This document shows positions 1-28,618 of a stretch of DNA of 64,000 bases, piece by piece. The stretch spans positions 37,266 to 101,265 of the forward strand of contig DATLRJ010000138.1 of the NCBI GenBank assembly GCA_035534715.1, in the 5' to 3' direction. The notes beneath the pieces are model-generated. The model saw nothing but the letters and a program-made list of their open reading frames with translations, made no database searches and was not told where the DNA came from. How positions within the stretch are numbered: position 1 is the stretch's first letter; each line of letters begins with the position of its first letter. The position numbers and the translations under genes are program-made. The DNA comes from Acidimicrobiales bacterium (lineage in GTDB: Bacteria > Actinomycetota > Acidimicrobiia > Acidimicrobiales > Bog-793).

Positions 1-257
1 ACGAGGCGCTCGAGGGCGCTCGCGGTGGTCACCGGCGCCTGGGTCGTGGAGCGTTTCGTGCCGCGAGGCGCGGGCGGCTCGGGCACGGCCGGCAGGACCT
101 CGATGCGGTAGTGGAGCTTCTGGAAGAAGCCGAAGAGCCCGCCTTTGCGGACGCACGCGGGCTCGCTGATCCGCACGCCCGTGCCGTGAACGCTCCAGGC
201 GTCGATCAGGAGCTTCTCGGGATCGGGGCCCTCAAATACCAGCGGTAGCGCTGACAC
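1..257 (-). CDS. flhF: probable FlhF (flagellar SRP-type GTPase), 5' end only; continues past the window start
   Basis: The minus-strand frame is open from GTG at 257 to position 1, overlapping the flhA stop by 26 nt. It is absent from the ORF track because it has no stop in the window. My translation is VSALPLVFEGPDPEKLLIDAWSVHGTGVRISEPACVRKGGLFGFFQKLHYRIEVLPAVPEPP. It resembles the short FlhF N-terminal region (GG-x-x-G-F-F ... EV), and flhF classically follows flhA. Confidence 0.4.
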   Translation of the reverse strand, partial: MSALPLVFEGPDPEKLLIDAWSVHGTGVRISEPACVRKGGLFGFFQKLHYRIEVLPAVPEPPAPRGTKRSTTQAPVTTASALERL

Positions 258-2304
258 CAGTCACCACTCCTATCCGTTCCAGCTGGACCTGCCGGCCGAT
301 CTCGCTCACCGACATGACGGCGAGCCGCGGGATCGCGGCCGCGAAGAGGTGGGCGAGCGCCGGGCGCAGCGCCGAGCCCACGACGAGCACGGGCTCACGT
401 CCGGCACGGCTGCCTGCGTCGTAGAGGGAGCGCACCTCGCCGACGAGCTGCTCGGTGACCTGGGGCTCGATGCCGAGCACGGTGCCCTGGTCGGTCGCTC
501 GGATGCTGTAGAGGAGGACCTGCTCGAACGCGGCGTCGACCGTCATCGCGGCGAGCTTGCCGTTGCGAGAGTGCGACGCGGTGATGAGCGGTCCGAGCGC
601 GGTGCGCGCGGCCTCGACGAGCGACTCGTGGCTCTTGTTCGGCTGCCGGGAGCGGGCGGTCACCGCCTCGACGATCCGGACGAAGTCGACGATCGGGACG
701 CCCTCGTCCACGAGCGACGCGAGGACGCGGTGGAGCTCGACGAGGGAGACCTGGGCGAGCTTCAGCTCTTCGACGGCCGCCGGGTCCGTGGCCTTCGCGG
801 CGTCGAGGAGGATCTGGACCTGCTGGACCGAGAGGAGGTCCGCGGCGTGCCGCGTCACGACCTCCGCGAGGTGGGTGATGATCGCGGACGACGGGTCGAT
901 CGGCGTGATTCCTGCGACCGCGATCGCCTGCTCGCGGGTCTCCGCGGGTATCCACTTCGCCGGGAGGCCGAACGCGGGCTCGGTCGTCGAGATCCCGCTC
1001 AAAAGGTCGATTCCCGGGCCGATCGCGAGCATCCGAGCCGGGTGGGCCTCGCCGCGAGCGACCTCGACGCCGTTCACACGGATCGCGTAGCTGTTCGGCG
1101 GCAGGTTGATGTTGTCGTGCGTCCGCACGGTCGGGATCGCGAAGCCGCGCTCGAGCGCGACCTTGCGTCGCAGGCCGCGCACGCGCTCGAGGAGGTCGCC
1201 GCCGTGCGCGGCGTCCGCGAGCGGTGTGACGTTCGCCGCGAGCTCGAGCTCGAGGCGCTCCGCGCGCATCTCGCTCGCGAGCGCTTGCGGTGTGTCGAGC
1301 ACGGGCGGTGTGACCGAGTCGAGCTCTGCGCGTGCCGCGTCGCTCGCGCGTGTCTCGGCCGCGCGGCGCGTGCGCGTGGAGAGCAGGACGAGAAGACCAC
1401 CGATGACGAAGAAGGGAAGGTGCGGAAGGCCGGGCACGACTGCGAGGAGCATCATCGCGGCGCCCGCGATCTGCAGCGCGCGTGGCTGCGCGCGGAACTG
1501 GTCGACGATGTCGTTGCCGAAGTCCGAGTCGTCTCCGGTGCTCCCGCGGGTCACGATGAGCCCGGTGGAGATCGAGAGCAGGAGCGCCGGGATCTGCGAG
1601 ACGAGCCCGTCGCCGATCGAGAGGATCGAGTAGGTGTGGATCGCCTGGGACATCGACAGGTGGTGGCCGATGACGCCGATGAGGAACCCGCCGAACAAGT
1701 TGATCACCGTGATGATCAGCGCGGCGATCGCGTCGCCGCGGACGAACTTGCTCGCGCCGTCCATGTTCCCGTAGAACTCGGACGTCTCGTCGATCTCCTT
1801 GCGCCGTCGCCGCGCCTCGGCCTCGTCGATGAGCCCCGAGTTCAGCTCGCCGTCGATCGCGAGCATCTTCGGTCCCATCGCGTCGAGCGAGAAGCGCGCG
1901 GACACCTCTGACACGCGACCCGCGCCGCTCGTCACGACGACGAACTGGATGATGATGAGGATCAGGAAGACGACGATCCCGACGACGATCTGGCCGCCGA
2001 TCACGAAGCTGCCGAAGCTCTGCACGACCGCCCCCGCGTAGCCGTGGAGCAGGACGAGCCGGGTGACGCTCACGTTGATCGCAAGCCGGAACATCGTCGC
2101 GATGAGGAGCAGCGACGGGAAGCCGGAGAAGTCGCGCGCCTTGTCGACGTGCATCGTCATGAGCAGCACGATGAGCGCGGCGGAGATGTTCACGGTGATG
2201 AGCAGGTCGAGCAGGAACGAGGGCAGCGGCACCACGAGCATCACGATGATGACGATGACCGCCGCGGGGACGCCGAAGAGGCCGATCTTCTGACCGGTCT
2301 TCAT
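232..2304 (-). CDS. flhA: flagellar type III export gate protein FlhA
   Basis: This is a 690-aa ORF. It has an N-terminal polytopic membrane domain with FHIPEP-type sequence (GAGRVSEVSARFSLDAMGPKMLAIDGELNSGLI) and a large cytoplasmic C-domain. It lies in a flagellar context. Confidence 0.95.
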   Translation of the reverse strand: MKTGQKIGLFGVPAAVIVIIVMLVVPLPSFLLDLLITVNISAALIVLLMTMHVDKARDFSGFPSLLLIATMFRLAINVSVTRLVLLHGYAGAVVQSFGSFVIGGQIVVGIVVFLILIIIQFVVVTSGAGRVSEVSARFSLDAMGPKMLAIDGELNSGLIDEAEARRRRKEIDETSEFYGNMDGASKFVRGDAIAALIITVINLFGGFLIGVIGHHLSMSQAIHTYSILSIGDGLVSQIPALLLSISTGLIVTRGSTGDDSDFGNDIVDQFRAQPRALQIAGAAMMLLAVVPGLPHLPFFVIGGLLVLLSTRTRRAAETRASDAARAELDSVTPPVLDTPQALASEMRAERLELELAANVTPLADAAHGGDLLERVRGLRRKVALERGFAIPTVRTHDNINLPPNSYAIRVNGVEVARGEAHPARMLAIGPGIDLLSGISTTEPAFGLPAKWIPAETREQAIAVAGITPIDPSSAIITHLAEVVTRHAADLLSVQQVQILLDAAKATDPAAVEELKLAQVSLVELHRVLASLVDEGVPIVDFVRIVEAVTARSRQPNKSHESLVEAARTALGPLITASHSRNGKLAAMTVDAAFEQVLLYSIRATDQGTVLGIEPQVTEQLVGEVRSLYDAGSRAGREPVLVVGSALRPALAHLFAAAIPRLAVMSVSEIGRQVQLERIGVVTGVSATAGI

Positions 2305-2430: not shown

Positions 2431-3825
2431 CTAGCGTCGGCAGAACGCCATGACGCGGTCGACCATGTAGTCGAGCTGCCGCTCCGACATCCCCGGGTAG
2501 AGGCCGATCCACAGCGAACGCTCCATGAGCCGGTCGGTCGCCGCGAGGTCGCCCACGACCCGGTAGCCCTCGCCCGTCGCGCGCATCTCGTCGAAGCACG
2601 GGTGCCTGAGGAGGTTGCCGGCGAAGAGCGCACGCGTCTGCACGCGCTCGGACTCGAGCCAGCGCGCGAGGTCCTGGCGCTCGAAGGGCGCGCCGTCGCG
2701 AACCTGAAGGAGGAAGCCGAACCAGCTCGGGTCCGCGCGCTCGGTTGCCACCGGGAGGTCGAGCACGTCGGCGACCGGCTCGAGCGCGTCGCGCAGGTAG
2801 ACGAAGTTCGCGCGGCGGGCCGCGCCGAACGCCTCGAGCTTGTCGAGCTGCGCGACCCCGATGGACGCCTGGAGGTCGGTCATCTTCAGGTTGTAGCCGA
2901 AGTGCGAATACGTGTACTTGTGGTCGTAGCCGCAGGGGAGCGTGCCGAACTGCTGGTCGAAGCGCTTCCCGCACGTGTTGTCCCGTCCGGAGCGGCAGTA
3001 GCAGTCGCGGCCCCAGTCGCGGAGCGACGCGACGATGGTGTCGAGCTCGTCGTCCGAGGTGAACACGGCTCCGCCCTCGCCCGTCGTCATGTGGTGCGCG
3101 GGGTAGAAGCTGCTCGTCGCGACGTGGCCGAACGTGCCCGTCGGGCGGGTGGAGCGCTCGAGGAGGGAGGTGTATCGCGAGCCGAGCGCGTCGCAGTTGT
3201 CCTCGAGGAGCCAGAGGTCGTGGCGTCTGCAGAAGTCGAGCACGGCGTCGACGTCGAACGGGTTGCCGAGCGTGTGCGCGAGCGAGACGGCTCGGGTCTT
3301 CGAGCTTCGTGCTGCCTCGAGCTGGAGGACGTCGACGTTTGCGGTCGTCGGCTCGACGTCGACGAACACCGGGACCGCACCGTGCTGGACGATCGGCGCG
3401 ACCGTGGTCGGGAAGCCCGCCGCCACCGTGATCACCTCGTCGCCGCGGCGGATGCGGCGCTCGCCGAGCCGCGGCGAGGTGAGCGCGGCGAACGCCACGA
3501 GGTTTGCGGACGACCCCGAGTTCACGAGCCGGCAGGAGGACACGCCGAGCGTGGCGGCGAGGCGCGCCTCGAGCACCGCCGCGTAGCGACCCTCGGTGAG
3601 CCAGAACTCGAGCGACGCACCGACGAGGTTGCGCACCTCGGCGTCGTCGTAGACACGCCCGGCGAACCGCACCGGTGTGCGACCGGGTACGAACGGCGGG
3701 CGCTCGGCGTCGACCGCGGCGACGTAGCGGGTGACTAGGCCGAGGATCTGCTCGCGAAGCTCCTGCGCGGTGGCCAGCGCGCCGGATTGCTCGTCCGTCT
3801 CGGCGAGGATCTCGGCGGTCGTCAC
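2431..3825 (-). CDS. rfbH: CDP-6-deoxy-L-threo-D-glycero-4-hexulose 3-dehydrase (E1; RfbH/DdhC/AscC-like)
   Basis: The protein is 464 aa from GTG 3825, which forms a GTGA overlap with the upstream stop. It has a DegT/DnrJ/EryC1 fold. It carries YPAHHMTTGEGG (His where aminotransferases have the PLP Lys) and CYCRSGRDNTC (C-X-C-X7-C), both hallmarks of the PMP/[2Fe-2S] enzyme E1. The 912-aa ORF-track entry is an upstream read-through. Confidence 0.88.
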   Translation of the reverse strand: MTTAEILAETDEQSGALATAQELREQILGLVTRYVAAVDAERPPFVPGRTPVRFAGRVYDDAEVRNLVGASLEFWLTEGRYAAVLEARLAATLGVSSCRLVNSGSSANLVAFAALTSPRLGERRIRRGDEVITVAAGFPTTVAPIVQHGAVPVFVDVEPTTANVDVLQLEAARSSKTRAVSLAHTLGNPFDVDAVLDFCRRHDLWLLEDNCDALGSRYTSLLERSTRPTGTFGHVATSSFYPAHHMTTGEGGAVFTSDDELDTIVASLRDWGRDCYCRSGRDNTCGKRFDQQFGTLPCGYDHKYTYSHFGYNLKMTDLQASIGVAQLDKLEAFGAARRANFVYLRDALEPVADVLDLPVATERADPSWFGFLLQVRDGAPFERQDLARWLESERVQTRALFAGNLLRHPCFDEMRATGEGYRVVGDLAATDRLMERSLWIGLYPGMSERQLDYMVDRVMAFCRR

Positions 3826-4958
3826 GTGCGCGAGCCGGCGCGCGCGTGTCCGGCGCGCGCGAGGACGTCGGGGTCCAGGTAGCGGTCGATCTGCCGTTCG
3901 ATCGCCCGCGCCGCGCGGAAACCCGTCGTGCGACGCGCGGCGTAGTACCACTCGACCGTCCAGCGCACGGCGTCGGTGAGCTCTAGCCGCGGCGTCCAGC
4001 CGAGCCGGCGGCGCGCCTTCGTGCTGTCGAGGGTGAGAACCGCCCGCTCCGGCGCGCAGCTCCGGCCCGACAGGCGGAGCTCGACGAGGTCGTCGCCGCC
4101 GAGCTCGCTCCACGACGCCTCGACGAGTGCTACGAGCTGTCCGACCGTCGCGAAGCTGCGCGGGTCCGGGCCGAAGTTCCACGCCCCGGCGGCCGCGTGC
4201 GAGCCGTCGCCGAGATGGGCGCCGAGGACGAGGTAGCCCGCGACTGCGTCGAGCACGTGCTGCCAGGGGCGCACGGCCTCGGAGTGGCGGAGCTCGAGCG
4301 GCGCGCGGGCGTCGAGCGCGCGCACGCAGTCCGGGACGATCCGCCCCGGCGCGAAGTCGCCTCCGCCGACGATGTTGCCTGCCCGTGCGGTCGCGAGCGC
4401 CGGACCGCCGTCGAAGAACGACGCGCGGTACGCGCGGGCGACGAGCTCGGCGGCGCCCTTGCTCGCGCTGTACGGGTCCTCGCCGCCGAGGTGGTCGGCC
4501 TCGAGGTGCGCGCCGTCGCGCGTCGCGTAGCACTTGTCGCTCGTCACGACGACACAGCTCGCGACGGACCCGACGCGTCGGGCGGCGTCGAGGACGTGGA
4601 CCGTGCCCATGACGTTCGTGTCGAACGTCGCGACCGGGTCGACGTACGAGGGGAGCACGAAGGCCTGTGCTGCGAGGTGGAACACGATCTCGGGCCGAAC
4701 GCGGCGGAGCACGTCTGCGACCCGGGCCGCGTCGCGCACGTCGCCGATCTCCTCGCGCGCGTACTCGCGCAGCGCGGCCGGCGCGAGCGGACCGGGCTCG
4801 GCGGCGAGCGACAGCCCCGTGACGTCGGCTCCGCAGCGGGCGAGCCAGACGGAGAGCCACGTCCCCACGAATCCGTTGTGCCCGGTCACGAGGACACGCT
4901 TGTCGCGATAGGCGTCGGCGAAGAGGTCCTCGTAGGCACGTGCCGTCGGAGCGGTCAC
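3822..4958 (-). CDS. rfbG: CDP-glucose 4,6-dehydratase (RfbG/DdhB-like)
   Basis: The protein is 378 aa from GTG 4958 (GTGA overlap). It has the Rossmann motif VLVTGHNGFVGTWL and the catalytic motif YSASK. It sits between the cytidylyltransferase and E1, as in ddh/rfb clusters. Confidence 0.88.
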   Translation of the reverse strand: MTAPTARAYEDLFADAYRDKRVLVTGHNGFVGTWLSVWLARCGADVTGLSLAAEPGPLAPAALREYAREEIGDVRDAARVADVLRRVRPEIVFHLAAQAFVLPSYVDPVATFDTNVMGTVHVLDAARRVGSVASCVVVTSDKCYATRDGAHLEADHLGGEDPYSASKGAAELVARAYRASFFDGGPALATARAGNIVGGGDFAPGRIVPDCVRALDARAPLELRHSEAVRPWQHVLDAVAGYLVLGAHLGDGSHAAAGAWNFGPDPRSFATVGQLVALVEASWSELGGDDLVELRLSGRSCAPERAVLTLDSTKARRRLGWTPRLELTDAVRWTVEWYYAARRTTGFRAARAIERQIDRYLDPDVLARAGHARAGSRT

Positions 4959-5725
4959 TCCCACACCTTCCACGGCGCCCGACCCGATGCCCACAGCTCC
5001 TCGAGCGCGGTGCGATCGCGGAGCGTGTCCATGGCGTGCCAGAAGCCGTGGTGCTGGTACGCCGACAGCTGGCCTTCGGCCGTGAGGCGCTCGAGCGGCT
5101 CGCGCTCCCACGCCGTGAGCTCGTTGTCCACGTAGCTGAGGACGTCCGGCGAGAGGACGAAGAAGCCACCGTTGATCCATGCGTCGTCGCCGGAGGGCTT
5201 CTCCTTGAATCGCGCGACGGAGCTCCCAGCGAGCTCGATCGCCCCGAAGCGGCCGGGTGGCAGGATGGCGGTGACCGTCGCCAGACGACCTTGCGCGAAG
5301 TGGAAGTCGACGACCTTGCGCACGTCGACGTCCCCGACCGAGTCGCCGTATGTCATCGCGAAGTGGTCGTCGTCCAGGTAGCGCGCGACCTTCGCGAGGC
5401 GCCCACCCGTCTGGGTCGCATCGCCTGTGTCCACGAGCGTGACCGTCCATGGCTCGACGTCGTGGCGGTGGATCTCCGCGGAGCCGGTCTTCAGGTCGAA
5501 GCTGACGTCGGAGTTGTGGAGGACGTAGTTCGAGAAGTACTCCTTGATGGCGTACCCCCGGTAGCCGCAGCAGACGACGAAGTCGTTGAAACCTGCCGCA
5601 GAGTAGATCTTCATGATGTGCCAGAGGATCGGGCGGCCCCCGATCTCGACCATCGGCTTCGGCTTCAGGTGGGTCTCCTCCGACAGCCGAGTCCCTAGGC
5701 CGCCGGCGAGGATGACGACTTTCAT
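4955..5725 (-). CDS. rfbF: glucose-1-phosphate cytidylyltransferase (RfbF/DdhA-like)
   Basis: The protein is 256 aa from ATG 5725. Its N-terminus MKVVILAGGLGTRLSEETHLKPKPMVEIGGRPILWHIM is the family signature. It is the first gene of a three-gene minus-strand operon. Confidence 0.9.
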   Translation of the reverse strand: MKVVILAGGLGTRLSEETHLKPKPMVEIGGRPILWHIMKIYSAAGFNDFVVCCGYRGYAIKEYFSNYVLHNSDVSFDLKTGSAEIHRHDVEPWTVTLVDTGDATQTGGRLAKVARYLDDDHFAMTYGDSVGDVDVRKVVDFHFAQGRLATVTAILPPGRFGAIELAGSSVARFKEKPSGDDAWINGGFFVLSPDVLSYVDNELTAWEREPLERLTAEGQLSAYQHHGFWHAMDTLRDRTALEELWASGRAPWKVWE

Positions 5726-5904
5726 CGGTGTGGCGCTCCTCCCGTGCGGGCACGCGGCGCGTTCGTGTGCACTTCCCGCGACTCGCGGGTCGTCGCGGGT
5801 CGTAACGGCGCGGGACGCGCCGACGTTGAGCGGCGGCCGCCCCGCCTGGCGACGTGCTCGGTAGGATGCCCGCCGACGCAACCCGGACCCGGGAAGGCTC
5901 CCGC

Positions 5905-6969
5905 ATGGACCGCACGAGATCGATCATCGGCGCCGACCTCGAGCGCATCGCGCGCGGCCCGATTCCGTGGGACCGTCTTGAGGGCGCGACCGTGCTCGTC
6001 ACCGGCGCGACCGGTCTCGTCGGCGCGTACCTCGTCGAGGCGCTCGTCGCGCGTCGGGCACCCGCGCACCGGCGCACGAGGGTCGTCGTGCTCGCGCGCT
6101 CGCCGTCGCGTGCCTCGGCGCGCTTTGCACACCTGGACGCGGCGCTCGTCCGGGTCGTCGAGCACCGGCTCGACGCACCGCTCGAGCTCGACGGGCGTGC
6201 GGACTACGTCGTGCACGCAGGGGCGCCCGCGCAGCCGACGGCGTTCGCCGCCGACCCCGTCGGCACCTACGTCCCGAACGTGGTCGGAACCCACCATCTG
6301 CTCGAGTGGGCCGCCGGCCGGGGCGTGGAGCGGTTCGCGTTCGTGAGCAGCGGTGCGGCAAACGGTGCCGTCCCGCTCGAGCGCGGGCCGTACGACGAGG
6401 ACGTCTACGGGCCACTGGACCCGCTCGATCCCTACGCCTGCTACGCGGAGTCGAAGCGGATGGGTGAGGCGGCCTGCATGGCATGGCACCGCCAGACCGG
6501 CTTGGACATCGTCGTCGCGCGGCTGGGCCACACCTACGGCCCGGGCCTCGCACGCTCGGACACTCGTTCGTTCGCCGAGTTCGTGTACTGCGCGGTCGAC
6601 GGCAGGGATATCGTGCTGCGGACCGCGGGTGAGGCGAGGCGGCCGTTCTGCTACCTCTCCGATGCCGTCACCGGGCTGCTCACGGTACTCGTCGCGGGTG
6701 CCTCGGGCCGCGCGTACTTCGTCGTGAACGACGCTGCGGCGTGCTCGATCCTCGAGCTCGCACAGCTCGTCGCACGGCTGTCGCCGGCACCGGGAATCTC
6801 CGTGCGCACGCTCGACACCCCCGCAGGAGATGCGAAGGGAGTCCACCCCGCCGGGGACCTCGAGCTCGCGATGCCCGTGGCGGCGCGCCTGCGTGCGCTC
6901 GGATGGGATCCGCACGTCGGGCTCGCCGAGGGCTTCGCTCGCACCGTCGACGCACACCTCGGTGCCTGA
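5905..6969 (+). CDS. NAD-dependent epimerase/dehydratase/reductase (extended SDR)
   Basis: I place the start at ATG 5905, preceded by gggaagg; the ORF track begins at 5854. The protein has TVLVTGATGLVGAYL and YAESK (YxxxK) motifs. It is divergent from rfbF, so it is a candidate 4-ketoreductase or epimerase for the CDP-sugar. Confidence 0.8.
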   Translation: MDRTRSIIGADLERIARGPIPWDRLEGATVLVTGATGLVGAYLVEALVARRAPAHRRTRVVVLARSPSRASARFAHLDAALVRVVEHRLDAPLELDGRADYVVHAGAPAQPTAFAADPVGTYVPNVVGTHHLLEWAAGRGVERFAFVSSGAANGAVPLERGPYDEDVYGPLDPLDPYACYAESKRMGEAACMAWHRQTGLDIVVARLGHTYGPGLARSDTRSFAEFVYCAVDGRDIVLRTAGEARRPFCYLSDAVTGLLTVLVAGASGRAYFVVNDAAACSILELAQLVARLSPAPGISVRTLDTPAGDAKGVHPAGDLELAMPVAARLRALGWDPHVGLAEGFARTVDAHLGA

Positions 6970-6991
6970 CCCCGAACACTGCGTTTTCTCG

Positions 6992-7015
6992 GGTGCCGCC
7001 GGCCGCGGCGGCGCC
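6992..7015 (+). terminator. GC-rich hairpin after the SDR gene
   Basis: The structure is ggtgccgccg-gccg-cggcggcgcc, a 10-bp stem with one G-U pair. It lies 23 nt after the TGA at 6967-6969. It is followed by a 180-nt spacer of visibly lower GC before the next gene. Confidence 0.35.
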
Positions 7016-7196
7016 GCGTCCTCAACTCTCCGACGGTGCGGACGTTAGGCGACCCTGTAGTCGAGCGTGGCAGAAAGCTTTGTCCCGTGGGCGCCCAACG
7101 GATGGGGCGTCGGTGTTGCGCCGTCGGATCTGGCGACATCGAGAGTGTGCAGCGTACGCGCGAGTTGGCTCGCCGCTGTGGGCAGAGGAGGATGCC

Positions 7197-9089
7197 ATGG
7201 GTCCCGATACGGCCGCCGTCGAGTCGGCCGCGCCCGTGCGGGTCGTCGACTGGATCGTCGGTGCCCTTCGGGCGCGCGGCATCGACCAGGTGTTCACCGT
7301 GACGGGCGGCGGCGCGATGCACCTCGACGACGCGGTGGGCGCGGACGAGGCGATCGACGTGGTCTGCATGCTCCACGAGCAGGCCGTCGCCATCGCGGCC
7401 GAGGCGTACACGAAGGCGTCCGGGAAGCTCGCGCTCGCGCTCGTGACCGCCGGCCCCGGAGGGACGAACGCGATCACCGGCGTCGCGGGCGCGTGGCTCG
7501 ACTCGACGCCGATGCTCGTGATCTCCGGCCAGGTGAAGCGGGCCGACCTCGTCGGCACGACCGGTGTGCGCCAGCGTGGTGTCCAGGAGCTCGACCTCGG
7601 CGCGATCGTCAATTCGATCACGAAGTACACCGCGCTCGTATGCGATCCGCTCCGGATCCGCTACCACCTCGAGCGGGCGCTCCACCTCGCGACGACTGGA
7701 CGCCCCGGACCCGTCTGGCTCGAGGTCCCGCTGGACGTCCAGGCAGCGCTCGTGAGCCCCGCCGAGCTCGTCGGCTTCGAACCGTCCGAGATCGGCGAGG
7801 CGACGACGCTCGACCGTCGCGAGGTGCGGCGCGCCGCGTCGCTCGTTCTCGACGCGCTCGCCGAGAGCGAGCGTCCGCTCCTGCTCGTGGGTGCCGGTGT
7901 GCGTCTCGCGCACGCGGAGCACGAGCTGCTCGGGCTCGTCGACGCGCTCGGGATCCCGGTGCTCACCACCTGGCCTGCGATGGGACTCGTGGGCGACGAG
8001 CACCCGTTGCACCTCGGCCGGCCGGGCCCGCTCGCGGGCCGCGGCTCGAACTTCGTGCTGCAGACCGCGGATCTCGTGCTGTGCCTCGGGGCGCGACTCG
8101 ATCTCGTGACGACCGGCTACGACCCGAAGGACTTCGCGCGCAACGCCCGGAAGTTCGTCGTCGACATCGACCCCGCGGAGCTCGCGAAGCTCGACGGGGC
8201 GATCGACACCGCGATCTGCGCGGACGCAGGCGAGTTCATCGCGGAGCTCGCCCGTGAGGCGCCGAGCCGCCCCGCGCGCGATCGCCGGCGATGGGCGGCA
8301 CGCGGTCGCGAGCTGGTCGAGGCGTACCCGATCGTGCGCGAAGAGCACCGGACCCGTGGCGGGCGCGTGTCGACGTACCACTTCGCCGACGCGCTCTCCG
8401 ATCTGCTCACCGACGACGACGTGCTCGCACCGTGCAGCTCGGGGCTCGCGATCGAGATATTCCTGCTCGCCCTGCGCCTGAGGACCGGTCAGCGGGCGAT
8501 CTTCACGACGGCGCTCGGCGCCATGGGCTACGGGCCACCGGCGGCGGTCGGCGCGTGCATCGCCTCGGGACGGCGACGCACGATCTGCGTGGACGGGGAT
8601 GGCGGGTTCCAGCTGAACGTCCAGGAGCTCGAGACGATCCGCCGCCTCGCGCTTCCCGTGAAATTGTTCGTGCTCGAGAACGGCGGGTACGCGTCGATCC
8701 GGGCGTCACAGCAGCGCTGGTTCGGGCGCCTGATCGGCGCGGACGCGTCGAGCGGCGTGACGCTCCCCCCCGTCGAGGGACTCGCGCGCGCGTACGGCCT
8801 CCCCTTCGCCCGCATCGACGGCCACGAGCTGCTCGCACCCCAGTTGCGCGCCGTGCTCGACGCTCCCGGTCCCGTCGTGTGCGAGGTTCCGTCGCCCCCG
8901 GACGAGCGGCGCGAGCCGGCGCAGGTGAGCGAGGCGCTCGCCGACGGCGGCATGCGATCGCGTCCGATCGAGGACCTCGCGCCGCTCCTGCCGAGAGACG
9001 AGCTCGCGGCGAATCTCGCGGCGTCCTACGCCGTGACGTCAGACGGACCGGCCGATGCCCGGCACGAGATCGACGAGGTGCGCAGATGA
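7197..9089 (+). CDS. thiamine-diphosphate-dependent enzyme, acetolactate-synthase/YerE-like (three-domain)
   Basis: The protein is 630 aa from ATG 7197, preceded by gaggagga. The N-domain reads FTVTGGGAMHLDDA...LHEQAVAIAAEAY...TAGPGGTNAITGVAGAWLDSTPMLVISGQ. The C-domain has a ThDP-Mg motif, VDGDGGFQLNVQELETIRRLALPVKLFVLENGGY. The 782-aa ORF-track entry is extended at its N-terminus. Confidence 0.85.
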   Translation: MGPDTAAVESAAPVRVVDWIVGALRARGIDQVFTVTGGGAMHLDDAVGADEAIDVVCMLHEQAVAIAAEAYTKASGKLALALVTAGPGGTNAITGVAGAWLDSTPMLVISGQVKRADLVGTTGVRQRGVQELDLGAIVNSITKYTALVCDPLRIRYHLERALHLATTGRPGPVWLEVPLDVQAALVSPAELVGFEPSEIGEATTLDRREVRRAASLVLDALAESERPLLLVGAGVRLAHAEHELLGLVDALGIPVLTTWPAMGLVGDEHPLHLGRPGPLAGRGSNFVLQTADLVLCLGARLDLVTTGYDPKDFARNARKFVVDIDPAELAKLDGAIDTAICADAGEFIAELAREAPSRPARDRRRWAARGRELVEAYPIVREEHRTRGGRVSTYHFADALSDLLTDDDVLAPCSSGLAIEIFLLALRLRTGQRAIFTTALGAMGYGPPAAVGACIASGRRRTICVDGDGGFQLNVQELETIRRLALPVKLFVLENGGYASIRASQQRWFGRLIGADASSGVTLPPVEGLARAYGLPFARIDGHELLAPQLRAVLDAPGPVVCEVPSPPDERREPAQVSEALADGGMRSRPIEDLAPLLPRDELAANLAASYAVTSDGPADARHEIDEVRR

Positions 9090-10321
9090 CCGTGATGACT
9101 CCCGCGAGCGTGACCCCGGCAAATGACGTGGCCTCGCTGGACGCGATGCTCGCCGAGCCCATCGAGCGAGCGCGACTTCGCGAGCGCGCGACGTTCGACG
9201 ACGCGGCCCGGGAGAGGGCCGGGCGGATCGTGCTGTTCGGAGCTGGCGGCCTCGGCCGCCGGACGCTCGCGGGGCTCCGTGCGGCGGGGGTCGAGCCGCT
9301 CGCGTTCGCGGACAACCGTGCGGGCTCGCACGGGTCCACTGTCGACGGCGTCGAGGTGCTCGCCCCGGAGGACGCGTCCGCGCGCTTCGGTGCGGACGCC
9401 GTGTTCGTGGTGACGATCTGGGGCGCGGGTAGCACGCACCGCTTCGCCCACTCACGTGACCAGCTCACCGCGCTCGGGTGCGACTGCGTCGTCCCCGCGG
9501 CGTGGCTCTTCTGGCGCCACGCTGAGCAGCTTCTCCCGTTCTACGCGCTCGACCTGCCCTCGCGCCTTCTCGAGCAGGGGACCGAGGTGCGCAGGTGCTA
9601 CGAGTCGCTCGCGGACGAGCGGTCGCGGGCGGAGTACGTCGCGCAGGTCCGCTGGCGCCTCACCGGCGACCCCGGGGGTCTCGCCCACCCGGTCGGGGAG
9701 GCGCAGTACCTCGTGACCGACGTCGCGGTCCCGGTAGATGGCGACGTGGTGCTCGACTGCGGTGCGTACGACGGCGACACGCTCCGTTCGTGGATGGCGG
9801 TGCGCGGCCCGTCGTTCCGGGAGTACGTGGCGATGGAGCCGGACCCGCAGAGCCGTGCCCGCCTCGCTGCGTGCGTCGCGGCGATGGACGACGGCTTGCG
9901 GCAGCGCGTACGGGTCCTCCCGTACTCGGTGGGCGGCCGGACGGGGATCGCGACGTTCAGCGCGTCGGGGTCGCTCTCGTCATCGCTCGGCGAGGGCGGT
10001 GGGATCGAGGTCGAGTGCGTTCGGCTCGACGACCTGCGCGACGAGCTCGGGGGCGCGTCGCCGACCTTCGTGAAGGTGGACATCGAAGGCGCCGAGCTCG
10101 ACGCGCTCGCGGGTGCGGCGTCGCTCGTTCGCGAGTGCCGCCCGATGATCGCGATCGCCGCTTACCACCGCCAGGACCACCTGTGGCGCGTTCCGCTCGC
10201 GGTGCGCGCGCTGTGGCCCGGGTACGCGCTCTTCCTCCGGCCGCACAACGAGGAAGGCTGGGACCTCATCCTCTACGCGGTTCCGCCGGATCGCGTGCCG
10301 GGGCGCCGAGCCGCGACGTGA
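9086..10321 (+). CDS. FkbM-family methyltransferase with N-terminal Rossmann-like domain
   Basis: The protein is 411 aa from ATG 9086 (ATGA overlap). It has VLDCGAYDGDTLRSW and FVKVDIEGAELDAL motifs. The N-terminal module reads RIVLFGAGGLGRRTLAGLRAAGVEPLAFADN. Confidence 0.8.
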   Translation: MTVMTPASVTPANDVASLDAMLAEPIERARLRERATFDDAARERAGRIVLFGAGGLGRRTLAGLRAAGVEPLAFADNRAGSHGSTVDGVEVLAPEDASARFGADAVFVVTIWGAGSTHRFAHSRDQLTALGCDCVVPAAWLFWRHAEQLLPFYALDLPSRLLEQGTEVRRCYESLADERSRAEYVAQVRWRLTGDPGGLAHPVGEAQYLVTDVAVPVDGDVVLDCGAYDGDTLRSWMAVRGPSFREYVAMEPDPQSRARLAACVAAMDDGLRQRVRVLPYSVGGRTGIATFSASGSLSSSLGEGGGIEVECVRLDDLRDELGGASPTFVKVDIEGAELDALAGAASLVRECRPMIAIAAYHRQDHLWRVPLAVRALWPGYALFLRPHNEEGWDLILYAVPPDRVPGRRAAT

Positions 10322-11361
10322 CCGTGCCCACCTTGCTCGCTCACGAGACGGTCGCCGACTGGCTCGACTGGCGCGCCCGAGCCGCTGCGCGGGCGCACTC
10401 CCGCCGCTGGAGCCCGTCTCCGAGCGGTGCGTACTCGCTGTTCGGCGCGGGCGGGGCGCCGCTCGGGGAGGGTGCAGTCGTGGTCGCGATCGACGACGTG
10501 TCGCCGACGGTGCGCGCCTCGCTCCTCGCCCCTGCCGACCTTCTCGTCGCACGCGGCGTCCCGGTCGCGCTCCTCGCACCGGCTCACCTCGCGGATGCGC
10601 TCGCGGTGCGCGGCTTCCGCGCGGTCGCGGACCTCCGGGACCCGTCCACGTCGCCGGTGGCGCCTGCGGCCGTGCTCGCACTGTCGCACGCGGTGGGCGC
10701 CGGAGCCGCGGGTTGGGTGCTCGCGGGCCGCGCGCACGCGCCGTTCCTCGTCGTCCAACACGGTGTCGTCACCCCGTACGCCCCCCCCCTTCCTGCGGGT
10801 GCCGTCCTTCTCGCATGGTCGGCGCGAGATGCAGCGTTCTGGCTCGCGGGACGCGTGGAGCTCGAGGTGGAGGTCGTGGGGAGCGAGCTGCTGTGGCAGG
10901 CGGCCCAGCTCCGTCGCGAGCGAGCCGGCGCCGGAGAGGGGCTCTGCTTTCTCGGCCAGCTCCACGGAGCGGAGCTGGGGCGCGACGTGACGGTTCGCAC
11001 GGTCGCTTCGATCGCGCGCACACGTCCGGTCCTGTACCGCCCGCATCCCGCGGAGCGCGACCCGCTGAGCCTCGTGCGGCACGAGCGGTGGCGCCGTGGG
11101 GGAGTCACGGTCGCCTCGGCGAACGTGCCGCTCACCGACGAGGAGGGACCCATCGTCGGGATCTTCTCGACGGGGATCCTCGAGGCGGCCGCATGCGGCC
11201 TGGACGCGTACGCGACCTGCGTGCGCCCGCCCGGGTGGGTGGAGGAACTATGGCTCCGGTACTCGATGGCGCCGCTCGGGGCCCGCGAGGCAACCGTGGT
11301 GACCGTTCCTCCACGGCGACCCGCCGAGGCGATCGCGGACCTCGTGGAGGAGCGGAGGTGA
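10318..11361 (+). CDS. uncharacterised GT-B-like protein (candidate NDP-sugar hydrolase or ulosonate transferase)
   Basis: The protein is 347 aa from GTG 10318, with GTGA overlaps at both ends. The C-terminal half looks GT-B-like (FLGQLHGAE..., LYRPHPAE, LTDEEGPIVGIFSTGILEAAACG). I recognised no confident family match. Confidence 0.55.
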   Translation: MTVPTLLAHETVADWLDWRARAAARAHSRRWSPSPSGAYSLFGAGGAPLGEGAVVVAIDDVSPTVRASLLAPADLLVARGVPVALLAPAHLADALAVRGFRAVADLRDPSTSPVAPAAVLALSHAVGAGAAGWVLAGRAHAPFLVVQHGVVTPYAPPLPAGAVLLAWSARDAAFWLAGRVELEVEVVGSELLWQAAQLRRERAGAGEGLCFLGQLHGAELGRDVTVRTVASIARTRPVLYRPHPAERDPLSLVRHERWRRGGVTVASANVPLTDEEGPIVGIFSTGILEAAACGLDAYATCVRPPGWVEELWLRYSMAPLGAREATVVTVPPRRPAEAIADLVEERR

Positions 11362-12062
11362 TCGTCGGGCGCGGCACACCGTTCCTCGTCGTGGTCCCGG
11401 CACGCGGGGGTTCGAAGCGGGTGCCGGGAAAGAACCGGCGCCTTCTCGCGGGACGGCCGCTCGTCGAGTGGTCGATCGAGCACGTGGCGCGGTGCACGAC
11501 GCCGATGCGCCTCGTGGTGAGCACCGACAGCAGCGAGATCGCCGCCCTCGCTATCGCTGCAGGGGCCGAGGTTCCCTTCATCCGCCCGGCGGAGCTCGCG
11601 ACCGACGAGGCGCCGACCGAGCCGGTGCTCGTCCACGCGCTCGACGCGACGCCCGGCGCGTCCGAGGCGGAGCACGTCGTGCTGCTACCGCCGACGTCCC
11701 CGATCCGCCGCGACGGGTCGATCGACGCGGCGGTCGCCCGTTACCGAGCGCTCGGTGCGGACAGCCTCGTGAGCGTCACGGAGGCGAGCCCGTTGCAGTG
11801 GAGCGGTCCGCTCGACTCGCCGCGGCCGCTCTACGACACGAACGCGCGCCCGCGTCTGCAGAGCGTCGCACCGCAGATGCGCAGGTACCGGGAGAACGGG
11901 AGCATCGTCATCACTTCCGCCGCCGGGCTCCGCGCATCGGGCAACCGCATCTGCGGCAAGACCGTGATGTTCGTCATGAGCCCCGAGGAAGGCATCGACC
12001 TCGACTGCGAGTACGACTTCTGGATGGCCGAGCAGTGGTTACGGAGCGCACATGCTTATTGA
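11358..12062 (+). CDS. acylneuraminate/ulosonate cytidylyltransferase family protein (NeuA/PseF/LegF/KdsB-type)
   Basis: The protein is 234 aa from GTG 11358. It carries VVVPARGGSKRVPGKNRRLLAGRPLVEWSI, VVSTDS and LLPPTSPIRR motifs of the CTP_transf_3 family. Confidence 0.85.
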   Translation: MIVGRGTPFLVVVPARGGSKRVPGKNRRLLAGRPLVEWSIEHVARCTTPMRLVVSTDSSEIAALAIAAGAEVPFIRPAELATDEAPTEPVLVHALDATPGASEAEHVVLLPPTSPIRRDGSIDAAVARYRALGADSLVSVTEASPLQWSGPLDSPRPLYDTNARPRLQSVAPQMRRYRENGSIVITSAAGLRASGNRICGKTVMFVMSPEEGIDLDCEYDFWMAEQWLRSAHAY

Positions 12063-14298
12063 ACGAGACATCGCACGGTACTGCGTCGCGAGCGACGAGA
12101 CGGTCGAGGAAGCACTCCGGCAGATCGCGCGCAACGGGCGGCGCACGGTGTTCTGCGTCGAGCAGTCCGGAGCGCTCGCGGGCGTGATCACCGACGGCGA
12201 CTTCCGCCGCTGGCTCCTCGCGAACCCCGGGGGACCGCTGTCGACGTGCGCGCTGTCGGTCGCGAACCGGTCGTACGTCTCGGCCCGGTCTGGAACTTCG
12301 ACCGACGAGATCGAGGCGCTGTTCAGCGAGGCGATCCAGCTCGTGCCGGTCGTCGACGACAGCGGGCGGCTTGTCGCGGTCGCGCGTCCCCGCACACGCA
12401 CGCTGTGGATCTCCGGGCACGAGGTCGCGGCCGGCTCGCCGACGTTCGTCGTTGCGGAGATCGGCATCAACCACAACGGAAGCCTGGACGTCGCGAAGCG
12501 ACTCGTCGACGTCGCCGCGCGAGCGGGCGTGAACTGTGCGAAGTTCCAGATGCGCGACCTCGCCTCGCTCTACCGGAACTCCGGCGCGGTCGGCGATTAC
12601 CGCGAGGACCTCGGCCCGCAGTACACGCTCGACTTGCTCGAGCGGTTCTCGCTCGGCGTCGACGAGATGGTGGCGCTCTTCGACTACTGCCGGAGCGTCG
12701 GCCTCGTCCCGCTGTGCACGCCGTGGGACCTCGAGAGCGCGCGGGTGCTCGACGACTACGGGATCCCGGCGTACAAGGTCGCGTCCGCGGACCTCACGAA
12801 CCACGCGCTCGTGTCGTTCCTCGCGCAGAGCGGACGGCCGGTGATCCTCTCGACGGGAATGTCGACCGAGCAGGAGATCGTCGAGACCGTCTCGCTCCTC
12901 CGGTCGGCCGGGGCAGCCTACGCGCTGCTCCACTGCAACTCGACCTACCCGGCGCCGTTCAAGGACGTGAACCTGCGCTACATGGACCGTCTCGCCCAGA
13001 TCGGCGACTGCGCCGTGGGCTACTCGGGCCACGAACGCGGCTACCACGTGGCGGTCGCCGCAGTCGCGCGCGGCGCGAGCATCGTCGAGAAGCACGTGAC
13101 GCTCGACCGGACGTGGGAGGGCAACGACCACAAGGTGAGCCTCGAGCCGGACGAGCTCGTCGCGATGGTGCGTGAGATCCGCGACGTCGAGGAATCGCTC
13201 GGGTCCAACGTGACTCGCTCGGTCACGCCGGGGGAGATGATGAACCGGGTGAACCTCGCGAAGAGTCTCGTCGCGCGCGTCGCGATCCGCGCCGGCACCG
13301 AGATCACCGACGACCTCGTCGAGGTGCGGAGCCCCGGGCGCGGACTCCAGCCGAACCGCCGGTCGGAGCTCGTCGGCCGCACCGTGGCGCGCGACCTGGA
13401 ACCAGGAGACTTCTTCTTCGAGAGCGACCTCGCGCGTGGCCAGGTCGCGCCACGCGACTACCGCTTCCGCCGTCCGTGGGGACTTCCCGTCCGCTACCAC
13501 GACTACCGGGACCTCGCGGCGCGCTCGAACCCCGACTTCCTCGAGTTCCACATGAGCTATCGCGACCTCGACCTGCGCGTGGCCGACATGGTGGGCGAGC
13601 CGGTCGCGGCTGGGCTCGTCGTCCACAGCCCGGACCTGTTCCCGGGCGACCACATCTTGAACCTCGCGAGCATGGACGACGCGTACTGGAAGCGGTCGAT
13701 CTGCGAGCTGCAGCGCGTGGTGGACCGCACTCGCGAGCTCGCGCCGAGGTTCCGCACGGCCGGCCGGACGCTCGTGGTCGCGAGCCTTGGCGGCTTCTCG
13801 TCCGACCGCCCACTCCCGAGCGCCGAGCTTCCCGAGCGCTACGCACGCGTCGCGTCTGGCCTCGAGGAGCTCGACGACGAGGGCGTCGAGATCGTCGCGC
13901 AGACGCTGCCTCCGTTCCCGTGGTACCTGGGCGGCCAACGCTTCTGCAACCTGTTCGTCGACCCGGCGGACACGGTGGAGTTCGCGCGGGGCTACGGCCG
14001 GCGCATCTGCCTCGACGTCGCGCATACGAAGCTCGCGTGCAATCAGCGCCAGCTCGCCTTCTCGGACGCGGTCGAGCTGCTAGCGCCGTACACGGCGCAC
14101 CTTCACGTGGTGGACGCCTCCGGCGTCGACGGGGAGGGCCTGCAGGTCGGCACGGGCGAGGTCGACTTCCGGGTCCTCGCGGAGCAGCTCGACCGGCTCG
14201 CCCCGGCCGCGGGGTTCATCCCGGAGATCTGGCAGGGTCACCAGAACCTCGGCGAGGGCTTCTGGGTCGCCCTCGACCGCCTCGAGCGGTACTTGTGA
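12052..14298 (+). CDS. CBS pair + NeuB-type (PEP-condensing) ulosonate synthase + SAF + xylose-isomerase-like TIM-barrel fusion
   Basis: The protein is 748 aa. It begins with a CBS-like region. The NeuB motifs are TFVVAEIGINHNGSLDVAKRLVDVAARAGVNCAKFQ and SGHERGY...EKHVTLD. A SAF segment follows (VAIRAGTEITDDLVEVRSPGRGL). The C-terminal ~270 aa carry AP_endonuc_2/TIM-barrel motifs (ICLDVAHTKLA, AHLHVVDASGVDGEGLQVGTGEVDF). Confidence 0.85.
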   Translation: MLIERDIARYCVASDETVEEALRQIARNGRRTVFCVEQSGALAGVITDGDFRRWLLANPGGPLSTCALSVANRSYVSARSGTSTDEIEALFSEAIQLVPVVDDSGRLVAVARPRTRTLWISGHEVAAGSPTFVVAEIGINHNGSLDVAKRLVDVAARAGVNCAKFQMRDLASLYRNSGAVGDYREDLGPQYTLDLLERFSLGVDEMVALFDYCRSVGLVPLCTPWDLESARVLDDYGIPAYKVASADLTNHALVSFLAQSGRPVILSTGMSTEQEIVETVSLLRSAGAAYALLHCNSTYPAPFKDVNLRYMDRLAQIGDCAVGYSGHERGYHVAVAAVARGASIVEKHVTLDRTWEGNDHKVSLEPDELVAMVREIRDVEESLGSNVTRSVTPGEMMNRVNLAKSLVARVAIRAGTEITDDLVEVRSPGRGLQPNRRSELVGRTVARDLEPGDFFFESDLARGQVAPRDYRFRRPWGLPVRYHDYRDLAARSNPDFLEFHMSYRDLDLRVADMVGEPVAAGLVVHSPDLFPGDHILNLASMDDAYWKRSICELQRVVDRTRELAPRFRTAGRTLVVASLGGFSSDRPLPSAELPERYARVASGLEELDDEGVEIVAQTLPPFPWYLGGQRFCNLFVDPADTVEFARGYGRRICLDVAHTKLACNQRQLAFSDAVELLAPYTAHLHVVDASGVDGEGLQVGTGEVDFRVLAEQLDRLAPAAGFIPEIWQGHQNLGEGFWVALDRLERYL

Positions 14299-15146
14299 GC
14301 ACGCCCACGCAAGCGACGCGACCCGGAGGCGAGTTCGACCTGGGCGGAAAGGTCGTGCTCCTCACGGGCGCGCGCGGTCAGATCGGCTCGGAGGCCGCGG
14401 ACGCGTTCGCCGCGCACGGAGCCTTCGTGGTGGTCACCGACATCGGGGACGCGGCACGCCTCGAGGACCAGGCGCGCGACCTGCGGGCCCGGCACGCGGG
14501 CGCGCGCGCGATCGGTGTCGAGCTCGACGTCACGTCGGCCGATTCGGTCGCCGCGGCGTTCGCCGTGGTCGCCGAGGAGTTCGGTCGGGTCGACGTGCTC
14601 GTGAACAACGCCGCGATCGACGCGAAGTTCGACGCCTCCGTCGGCGCGATCGAGCCTGCCCGCTTCGAGTCCTATCCGCTCGAGCTGTGGGAGCGCTCCG
14701 TCGCGGTGAACCTCACGGGACTCATGCGCGTCACGCAGGCGGCGCTCCAGGTCATGTTGCCGCAAGGCAGTGGAAACATTGTGAACGTCGGGTCCTCGTA
14801 CGGCGTCGTCTCGCCGAACCAGGCGCTCTACGAGACCGACCGCGTACACGAGCGCCGCTACAAGCCCGTCGACTACGTGGGCACGAAGTCCGCGATCGCG
14901 AACCTCACTCGCTACTGGGCGACCCTCTACGCGCGCGAGGGCATTCGCTGCAACTGCCTGGTCCCGCACGGGATCGACAACGCGCACGACGAGCGGTTCC
15001 GCCAGAACTTCGCGTCGCTCTCGCCGATCGGGCGCATGTGCGCGGTCGAGGAGCTGCGAGGGCCGTTCGTCTTCCTCGCGTCCGACGCGTCGAGCTACAT
15101 GACCGGGTCCGTGCTCGTGGTCGACGGGGGATGGACCGCGTGGTAG
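14295..15146 (+). CDS. classical short-chain dehydrogenase/reductase
   Basis: The protein is 283 aa from GTG 14295 (GTGA overlap). It has VVLLTGARGQIGS, NNAA and YVGTK (YxxxK) motifs. Confidence 0.85.
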   Translation: MSTPTQATRPGGEFDLGGKVVLLTGARGQIGSEAADAFAAHGAFVVVTDIGDAARLEDQARDLRARHAGARAIGVELDVTSADSVAAAFAVVAEEFGRVDVLVNNAAIDAKFDASVGAIEPARFESYPLELWERSVAVNLTGLMRVTQAALQVMLPQGSGNIVNVGSSYGVVSPNQALYETDRVHERRYKPVDYVGTKSAIANLTRYWATLYAREGIRCNCLVPHGIDNAHDERFRQNFASLSPIGRMCAVEELRGPFVFLASDASSYMTGSVLVVDGGWTAW

Positions 15147-28595: not shown

Positions 28596-28618
28596 ACTCA
28601 CGAGAATTGGAGAAACGG

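Follow-up and report, generated by a model that had tools for sequence, protein, structure and literature searches.

A predicted NeuB-coupled pathway to a C-branched CDP sugar in an actinobacterial flagellar glycosylation island

Genes of the locus

The 64,000-nt (64-kb) stretch of contig DATLRJ010000138.1 of an Acidimicrobiales bacterium, here called the window, carries a flagellar glycosylation island between flhA and fliC (2431-28395), in which genes for a CDP-3,6-dideoxyhexose stand beside a divergent operon with a thiamine diphosphate (ThDP)-dependent enzyme and a NeuB-type synthase. The contig is covered by protein records HVC25828-HVC25877. Because lists of open reading frames (ORFs) were noisy at the ~72% G+C of the window, genes were called from third-position GC (GC3) together with start-codon context and listing. 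Their products were searched against Pfam domains, NCBIfam equivalog models with their cut-offs, and solved structures from the PDB. The genes of the module were the following (SDR, short-chain dehydrogenase/reductase; PEP, phosphoenolpyruvate):

2431-3825, minus strand: ddhC/rfbH, CDP-4-keto-6-deoxyglucose 3-dehydrase (E1); NF011936, 681.8 bits against a cut-off of 423
3822-4958, minus strand: ddhB/rfbG, CDP-glucose 4,6-dehydratase; TIGR02622, 374 bits against 278.45
4955-5725, minus strand: ddhA/rfbF, glucose-1-phosphate cytidylyltransferase; TIGR02623, 432.3 bits against 300.25, full length
5905-6969, plus strand: extended SDR, candidate side-chain ketoreductase (YerF-like role); Pfam Epimerase, 1.2e-40
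7197-9089, plus strand: YerE-like ThDP-dependent carboligase of a JanthE-related clade (HVC25833.1); TPP_enzyme_N, M and C domains, each ~1e-30
9086-10321, plus strand: FkbM-family methyltransferase; PF05050, 2.7e-19; TIGR01444, 77 bits; ATGA overlap with the ThDP gene stop
10318-11361, plus strand: 347-aa GT-B fold protein, candidate CMP-ulosonate transferase; predicted structure; GTGA overlap
11358-12062, plus strand: CMP-ulosonate-synthetase-like cytidylyltransferase; PF02348, 1.2e-16; GTGA overlap
12052-14298, plus strand: CBS-NeuB-SAF-xylose-isomerase-like TIM-barrel fusion, predicted PEP-dependent ulosonic acid synthase (HVC25837.1); PF03102, 2e-81; AP_endonuc_2, 4e-17; SAF; CBS
14295-15146, plus strand: classical short-chain dehydrogenase (tailoring); adh_short_C2, 1.9e-49; GTGA overlap with the neuB stop

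The three ddh genes all exceeded the equivalog cut-offs of their families, confirming the first-pass annotation of a complete ddhA-B-C module, and the E-values of RfbF, RfbG and RfbH/E1, like those of the SDR and the ThDP enzyme, rule out chance; judged by family membership, a real CDP-3,6-dideoxyhexose pathway is encoded. Both GTGA overlaps on which translational coupling of the trio had been proposed were read directly in the sequence, at 3825-3822 (rfbG/rfbH) and 4958-4955 (rfbF/rfbG), and the sequence GGGAGGAG precedes the rfbF ATG. RfbH matched a solved E1 (PDB 3bcx) with 502 bits (E 1e-149), and in the alignment YPAHH replaced the lysine that binds pyridoxal phosphate and all four cluster cysteines (C...CxCx7C) were kept. 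The segment YPAHHMTTGEGG occupied residues 241-252, CYCRSGRDNTC residues 275-285, and the fourth cluster cysteine lay within EDNCDALG (residues 208-215). The His-His motif, the four cysteines and the NF011936 score bear out the earlier call of an E1 3-dehydrase and no aminotransferase, with cluster binding as a prediction.

On the plus strand, the genes from the ThDP enzyme to the classical short-chain dehydrogenase were chained through ATGA at 9086 and GTGA at 10318, 11358 and 14295, and form one translationally coupled operon. Pfam matches and coordinates agreed with the earlier description of a three-domain ThDP enzyme with a GDG...N motif and an extended SDR, both divergent from rfbFGH. 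However, that description ended at 9089, and the operon continues with the FkbM, GT-B, CMP-transferase-like, NeuB fusion and short-chain dehydrogenase genes. The interval 7197-15146 holds six consecutive plus-strand genes with 4-nt ATGA/GTGA overlaps plus one 11-nt overlap, and the ddh trio on the minus strand is chained likewise.

The NeuB fusion scored 319.5 bits with the NeuB_NnaB model (cut-off 399.65), 230.9 bits with PseI (cut-off 340.25) and 157 bits with NmNeuB in the PDB. The sole match of its C-terminal TIM-barrel domain in a PDB sequence search was MJ1311, at an uninformative E of 9e-4. The cytidylyltransferase reached 112 bits with the PseF model, below the cut-off of 205.7, and a domain survey of the island found no PseB/C/H- or LegB/C/H-type genes. 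The extended SDR matched no NCBIfam equivalog, its best PDB match being UDP-glucuronate decarboxylase (116 bits).

No Pfam or NCBIfam match was obtained for the 347-aa protein; public records label its family 'RNA-binding protein' or 'hypothetical'. Its AlphaFold (AF2) model had a pLDDT of 90.6 and a GT-B fold. The top Foldseek match of the model was PseG (E 6e-5, TM-score 0.39-0.46), and ordinary GT-B transferases scored almost equally. From the modelled structure, the protein is a candidate CMP-ulosonate transferase and less likely a PseG-like hydrolase; the role of a PseG-like CDP-sugar hydrolase was ranked below that of a transferase on account of the low TM-scores and the position of the gene in an autonomous triad. 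Invariant residues of the family include HP and FSTG motifs. CMP-sugar GT-B transferases typically carry an invariant His-Pro motif.

That triad, consisting of the GT-B protein, the CTP_transf_3 cytidylyltransferase and the CBS-NeuB-SAF-AP_endonuc_2 fusion, stands alone in cell-wall polysaccharide loci of Microbacterium panaciterrae and Leucobacter exalbidus (L088, 8086-16074; L089, 8035-16094). Because it occurs in these two loci with no ThDP or ddh genes, the triad is, as far as gene content tells, an autonomous cassette making, activating and transferring an ulosonic acid. It is accompanied there by Wzy, a ParA-like protein and glycosyltransferases, possibly as a Kdn-type teichulosonic acid cassette.

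Placement of the ThDP enzyme

In the ThDP enzyme, residue 60 marks the catalytic HEQ and residue 467 the GDG-X25-N motif. Its best acetolactate synthase (ALS) model was TIGR00118, with 315 bits against a cut-off of 538, and all other ALS models fell further below theirs. No gene for the small subunit IlvN or for IlvC was found near the ThDP gene, the neighbours being sugar-pathway genes. Identity as an acetolactate synthase was rejected on the missed NCBIfam cut-offs and the lack of IlvN and IlvC, and the earlier expectation that the enzyme is no bona fide acetolactate synthase is upheld by these scores and by its place in a sugar operon, as a prediction from homology and context. It resembles the large subunit of acetohydroxyacid synthase (AHAS) in its fold, in the catalytic glutamate of HEQ and in the GDG...N motif; it differs in falling below the equivalog cut-offs, in having no small subunit and in lying in a sugar operon. 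When it was aligned to Arabidopsis AHAS, the position of the RFDDR arginine was Val and that of the specificity tryptophan was Ser; we take these two AHAS positions to be the acceptor-carboxylate Arg and the specificity Trp, neither of which is kept.

The closest solved relative was PDB 8rph (38% identity, 382-400 bits), identified as JanthE of Janthinobacterium sp. HH01 from its CDG motif and the literature. Identity to PpYerE was 32% (239 bits) and to plant (Arabidopsis) AHAS 31% (231-232 bits), and PpYerE and AHAS were themselves 33% identical in a pairwise comparison. By profile and pairwise scores the enzyme is no bona fide ALS and is nearest to JanthE, but it is about as close to AHAS as to PpYerE. 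JanthE and the window protein share a C-terminal extension that is unaligned in PpYerE or AHAS; the motif is CDG in JanthE and GDG in the window protein. JanthE accepts ketones and long or 4-hydroxy keto-acid donors, and its physiological substrates are unknown (PMC12247030, PMC12188165), as are the natural substrates of most YerE-like lyases, which are valued biocatalysts.

A pattern scan with one genome per species found relatives of the ThDP enzyme in at least 595 species, spread over more than 20 phyla, and homologues at 56-77% identity were abundant in metagenomes. In a neighbour-joining tree, rooted on plant AHAS with few outgroups and without bootstrap and therefore approximate, PpYerE fell outside a large clade that included the window protein. 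The basal members of this clade (JanthE, loci of the candidate phyla radiation (CPR) and Clostridia loci) were NeuB-less, with a simple RfbF-RfbG-RfbH-ThDP-SDR layout. Two derived clades were distinguished, one with a NeuB-cupin fusion and an NT5C-like haloacid dehalogenase (HAD) protein and the other with plain NeuB and a KdsC-like HAD protein. The window protein nested in the latter with L003-L007, among loci where a NeuB-type synthase, a phosphatase and an isomerase almost always adjoin the ThDP gene. In this tree the ThDP phylogeny follows NeuB type, with the window inside the NeuB-plus clade and the NeuB-less loci basal. JanthE was considered as a member of the same tight family and rejected, being 35-38% identical to all members and grouping with the basal NeuB-less loci. 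Two ThDP paralogues each were seen in L024, L082 and L084, and the second copy of L024 grouped with PpYerE, outside the main family.

Related loci in other phyla

The island proteins of the window were compared with the loci of the best relatives by tblastn, and all ORFs were clustered. The best 80 relatives include Actinomycetota, Gemmatimonadota, Acidobacteriota, Verrucomicrobiota, Chloroflexota, Bacillota, Planctomycetota and Nitrospirota, as well as CPR groups, Altiarchaeota and Pacearchaeota. Presence was counted over 47 related loci, those flanked on both sides by 8 kb or more of sequence, and Pfam confirmed the families of representative sequences. A NeuB-family synthase was present in 40 of the 47, mostly just upstream of the ThDP gene with a KdsC-like phosphatase. 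RfbH was encoded within 10 kb in 32 loci, and NeuB and RfbH occurred together in 29. A HAD phosphatase (KdsC-like Hydrolase_3 or NT5C-like) was found in 31 loci, an FkbM methyltransferase in 28, and a sugar isomerase in 30, where it was a SIS_2 protein, a xylose-isomerase-like TIM barrel or a cupin domain joined to NeuB. The extended-SDR cluster, which takes in RfbG and SDR-type genes, was represented in 37 of 47 loci, and tblastn with the window SDR matched 31 of 48. By contrast, only 2 of 47 carried a CMP-transferase; the cytidylyltransferase and GT-B protein of the window are absent in most relatives.

The usual order, on one strand, was RfbF-RfbG-RfbH-(SDR)-(SIS)-NeuB-HAD-ThDP, with tailoring genes, FkbM, GT2 and GtrA after it. 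Two Actinomycetota-like loci (L085, L087) and two of Gemmatimonadota (L004, L007) had the NeuB fusion beside the ThDP gene and no CMP-transferase. The full operon of the window was repeated in L086, but in a non-flagellar envelope context with GT87 and GT2. Two Clostridia loci, L060 and L074, consisted of a minimal five-gene RfbF-RfbG-RfbH-ThDP-SDR cassette with no NeuB, and suit a yersiniose-like model better than the window does. In Chromobacterium sinusclupearum MWU13-2610, a cultured isolate (L081), and in other NeuB-cupin loci, NeuB was fused to a lyxose-isomerase-like cupin domain; this variant also has an NT5C-like HAD protein, a radical SAM enzyme and a C-methyltransferase-like protein.

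Most related loci look like envelope or lipopolysaccharide clusters with GT2, GtrA, PMT_2 or GT87. A flagellin gene lay within 10 kb of the module in L001, L003, L060 (Clostridia; ~8 kb), L063 and L071 (Verrucomicrobiota), showing that the module was recruited to flagellar islands repeatedly.

The first-pass annotation had reported that the window encodes no E3 (DdhD/AscD), and a domain survey of all called genes of the 64 kb confirmed this, with no Fer2/FAD/NAD reductase architecture among them. A motif scan of 84 related loci likewise found no reductase-sized ORF with a plant-type ferredoxin motif, the only matches being short ORFs of 93 and 139 aa. Among the 43 RfbH homologues with 380 residues or more in the related loci, 42 kept the CxCx7C motif. 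Since 0 of 84 loci encode an E3-like protein while nearly all RfbH proteins keep the cluster motif, an E1 without a dedicated E3 is the rule in the RfbH family of these loci, and E1-type 3-dehydrases are routinely encoded without such a partner. A plausible precedent is SpnQ, an E1 homologue that is served by general cellular reductases.

Proposed pathway and its alternatives

By family membership, RfbF, RfbG and RfbH/E1 convert glucose-1-phosphate to CDP-4-keto-3,6-dideoxy-D-glucose. With no E3 gene in the locus, E1 would draw its electrons from a housekeeping ferredoxin or flavodoxin reductase. The ThDP enzyme, judged from its homology to JanthE and PpYerE and from synteny, would decarboxylate an alpha-keto acid and attach the acyl-anion equivalent so formed to the keto carbon C4 of the CDP sugar. 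The product would be a C4-branched tertiary alcohol, whose side-chain ketone an SDR would then reduce. NeuB enzymes make 3-deoxy-2-ulosonic acids from PEP and an aldose, and cross-phylum synteny suggests that the donor would be a Kdn-like acid of this type, made by the CBS-NeuB-SAF-TIM-barrel protein. An isomerase, NeuB and a KdsC-like phosphatase together resemble the Kdn-9-phosphate route of Bacteroides, which serves here as a lead. An ulosonic acid needs CMP activation to act as a glycosyl donor; because the CMP-transferase is missing from 45 of the 47 loci, use as a ThDP substrate would be its simplest fate. This would make the branch a long polyhydroxyalkyl chain, following a logic known from the clusters for erwiniose, caryophyllose and gastriose. 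There, an adjacent aldolase supplies a 4-hydroxy-2-oxo acid, which the YerE-like enzyme decarboxylates before adding the unit to CDP-4-keto-3,6-dideoxyglucose, and ErwE rejects pyruvate (PMC9306805). The GFO oxidoreductase of the island, the short-chain dehydrogenase and two methyltransferases would tailor the product, and the large glycosyltransferases beside fliC would place it on flagellin. The CMP-transferase and GT-B protein of the window probably draw on this ulosonic acid as well, which would enter the glycan directly as a second residue.

A farther-reaching reading is that the NeuB-type synthase and the YerE-like ThDP lyase form a widespread coupled operon, present in hundreds of species of more than 20 phyla including CPR bacteria and DPANN archaea, which would decarboxylate a nine-carbon-class sugar acid and graft it onto CDP-4-keto-3,6-dideoxyglucose to yield a ~14-carbon C-branched sugar, decorating actinobacterial flagellin in this case; its probability is about 0.45. 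The explanation that we favor, at about even odds, is that the keto-acid donor is a NeuB-made 3-deoxy-2-ulosonic acid and not pyruvate, by analogy with erwiniose and caryophyllose. The product is probably not yersiniose, with its two-carbon branch, but a relative with a much longer one. The two-carbon, yersiniose-type branch from pyruvate that had been proposed for this locus was not supported, given that PpYerE is no closer than AHAS, that the window protein falls in the NeuB-plus clade and that the operon holds a NeuB fusion.

Several points weigh against the favored reading. The sequence of the ThDP enzyme alone appears to put it no nearer to PpYerE than to AHAS and gives no placement in a YerE clade; therefore genomic context must carry the argument. 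The ThDP tree behind part of that context is a neighbour-joining tree with few outgroups and is approximate. No HAD phosphatase was found in the window, and 11 of the 47 full loci have NeuB and the ThDP gene but no RfbH within 10 kb. The window has both a CMP-transferase and the GT-B protein, so NeuB could serve a separate CMP-sugar only. Ulosonic acids are mostly cyclic hemiketals, which leaves little of the free keto form open to attack by ThDP. Of the donors shown for YerE-like enzymes, none exceeds C8 (PMC12247030). For every member of the ThDP clade, donor and product are predictions from sequence and genomic context.

The locus could instead make two independent sugars, with the ThDP enzyme adding a C2 unit from pyruvate and the SDR reducing it to give a CDP-yersiniose-like sugar, and with the NeuB fusion, CMP-transferase and GT-B protein making, activating and transferring an unrelated Kdn-like acid. 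The triad is autonomous in L088 and L089 and intact here, and its ulosonic acid may therefore form a glycan residue of its own, either besides serving as donor or instead of it; in addition, JanthE and MyGE accept pyruvate in vitro (PMC12188165, PMC9306805), and basal NeuB-less RfbF-RfbG-RfbH-ThDP-SDR loci exist, as in L060 and L074. However, the window ThDP enzyme belongs to a clade with NeuB in 40 of 47 loci and a CMP-transferase in 2, close relatives keep the NeuB fusion without a CMP-transferase, which would leave NeuB without a role, and ErwE shows that clustered YerE-like enzymes can exclude pyruvate. We regard two separate sugars as unlikely, though to be taken seriously. A serial path of the nonulosonic type, in which the GT-B protein as a PseG-like hydrolase frees the dideoxyhexose (branched or not) from CDP, NeuB joins it to PEP and the resulting higher ulosonic acid is CMP-activated, would be in keeping with PseG as top Foldseek match of the 347-aa protein and with the order GT-B, PseF-like, NeuB, which recalls the pse and sps operons. 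We consider this path improbable: the TM-score to PseG was only 0.39-0.46 with ordinary GT-B transferases nearly equal, the triad is found without ddh genes in L088 and L089, and most related loci have a sugar-phosphate isomerase and a KdsC-like phosphatase with no CMP-transferase, which fits a sugar-phosphate substrate of NeuB and not a released deoxyhexose.

The least probable alternative, by a little, is that the ThDP protein branches no sugar and is a divergent acetolactate synthase or an ulosonic acid decarboxylase, with ddhABC leading to an ordinary 3,6-dideoxyhexose, for instance paratose or abequose. Its best NCBIfam matches are indeed ALS models, its identity to AHAS is similar to that to PpYerE, and some Clostridium flagellar islands were predicted to carry rfbFGH and a reductase but no ThDP gene (PMC13317340). 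However, every ALS cut-off was missed and no IlvN or IlvC lies nearby, the closest solved relative is a ketone-accepting lyase, and operon linkage to RfbH was seen in 32 of 47 loci. Nor are the residues kept that we presume to be the acceptor Arg and Trp of AHAS.

The conserved NeuB-phosphatase-ThDP-ddhABC operon gives a concrete prediction of donor and product for a very large clade. If the NeuB-derived long branch is correct, the 'unifying scheme' for acyl-branched sugars would extend from pyruvate aldolases to PEP-dependent synthases. It would also imply a new class of higher-carbon branched sugars on the surfaces and flagella of poorly studied phyla, the ~14-carbon C-branched sugar being a product that no glycan analysis has reported so far. 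A full-text search found no paper linking NeuB or flagellin to YerE-like enzymes; an earlier description of the NeuB link is possible.

Comparison with known systems

The window shares with the yersiniose A pathway of Yersinia pseudotuberculosis O:VI (DdhA-D, YerE, YerF) the steps from CDP-glucose to CDP-4-keto-3,6-dideoxyglucose, and likewise has genes for a three-domain ThDP enzyme and for a reductase of the NAD(P)H type alongside. It differs in having no DdhD/E3, in a ThDP enzyme only ~32% identical to the YerE homologue PpYerE, and in an operon that adds a NeuB-type synthase, the donor probably not being pyruvate. The yersiniose A pathway targets O-antigen, whereas the presumed target of the window is actinobacterial flagellin.

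The erwiniose (ErwE/F/I/J), caryophyllose (MMAR_2331-2333) and gastriose (MyGE) clusters have in common with the proposed scheme an adjacent C-C-forming enzyme that feeds a YerE-like lyase (PMC9306805). A 3-deoxy-4-hydroxy-2-oxo acid is grafted there onto CDP-4-keto-3,6-dideoxyglucose, and a reductase and methyltransferases follow, as proposed for the window. In those clusters, however, the supplier is a pyruvate aldolase, whereas in the window it would be a PEP-dependent NeuB-family synthase, joined in most relatives by an isomerase and a phosphatase, and the donor predicted for the window (C9 class) would be longer and more hydroxylated than any shown.

A NeuB-family synthase and a flagellar island context are shared with the pathways to Kdn (Kdn-9-P synthase and phosphatase of Bacteroides) and to nonulosonic acids (Pse/Leg in flagellin glycosylation). 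The CMP-transferase of these pathways is also shared by the window, and the KdsC-type phosphatase by its relatives. The differences are that the NeuB and CMP-transferase of the window score below equivalog cut-offs, that its NeuB is fused to CBS and TIM-barrel domains, that most of its relatives are without a CMP-transferase, and that no PseB/C/H or LegB/C/H was found in the window.

The flagellar island and other features of the window

The remaining annotated genes of the island and its borders were the following (SAM, S-adenosylmethionine; TPR, tetratricopeptide repeat):

232-2304, minus strand: flhA, left border of the island; Pfam FHIPEP, 4.6e-229; TIGR01398, 740 bits
15175-16203, minus strand: GFO/IDH/MocA oxidoreductase (IolG-like or sugar 3-dehydrogenase-like); Pfam; TIGR04380, 105 bits, and NF040723, 100 bits, both below cut-off
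16200-17444, minus strand: class I SAM methyltransferase; Methyltransf_23, 1.4e-22
21233-23854, minus strand: glycosyltransferase GT4+GT2, 873 aa, candidate flagellin glycosyltransferase; Pfam
23959-28395, minus strand: glycosyltransferase GT2+TPR+GT4, 1478 aa, candidate flagellin glycosyltransferase; Pfam
28607-29452, plus strand: flagellin, presumed glycan acceptor, right border of the island; Flagellin_N, 4.5e-32; Flagellin_C, 2e-16

The flagellar setting given in the first-pass annotation was borne out by FlhA on the left and flagellin on the right, with fliD, fliS, flhB, fliPQR and the remaining flagellar genes beyond flagellin, up to ~50 kb. GT2 proteins with TPR repeats have been proposed as flagellin glycosyltransferase candidates in Clostridium (PMC13317340). 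Earlier work (PMC13317340) had already predicted rfbFGH in flagellar islands of Clostridium, Erwinia and Pantoea, which means that ddh genes by themselves are no novelty in such a setting. Two further island proteins (470 and 686 aa, 17693-21162) had no significant Pfam or NCBIfam family.

The gap of ~32 kb between flhA and flhB (232-35418) holds the island, fliC, fliD, fliS, a 101-aa ORF and a 470-aa methyltransferase. The last of these, at 32738-34150 between the fliS region and flhB, has a HemK/PrmC-like (N5-glutamine or lysine type) methyltransferase domain and is a candidate flagellar protein methyltransferase. The GC3 caller overlooked a 541-aa Ala/Pro/Thr-rich ORF at 41053-42678 on the minus strand, the C-terminus of which resembles a hook-length control (FliK) domain, and the start of FlgD possibly lies farther upstream, at 41192. 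The right end of the window carries a MazE-like antitoxin gene and, after it, a 150-aa ORF (62671-63458), possibly a toxin-antitoxin pair.

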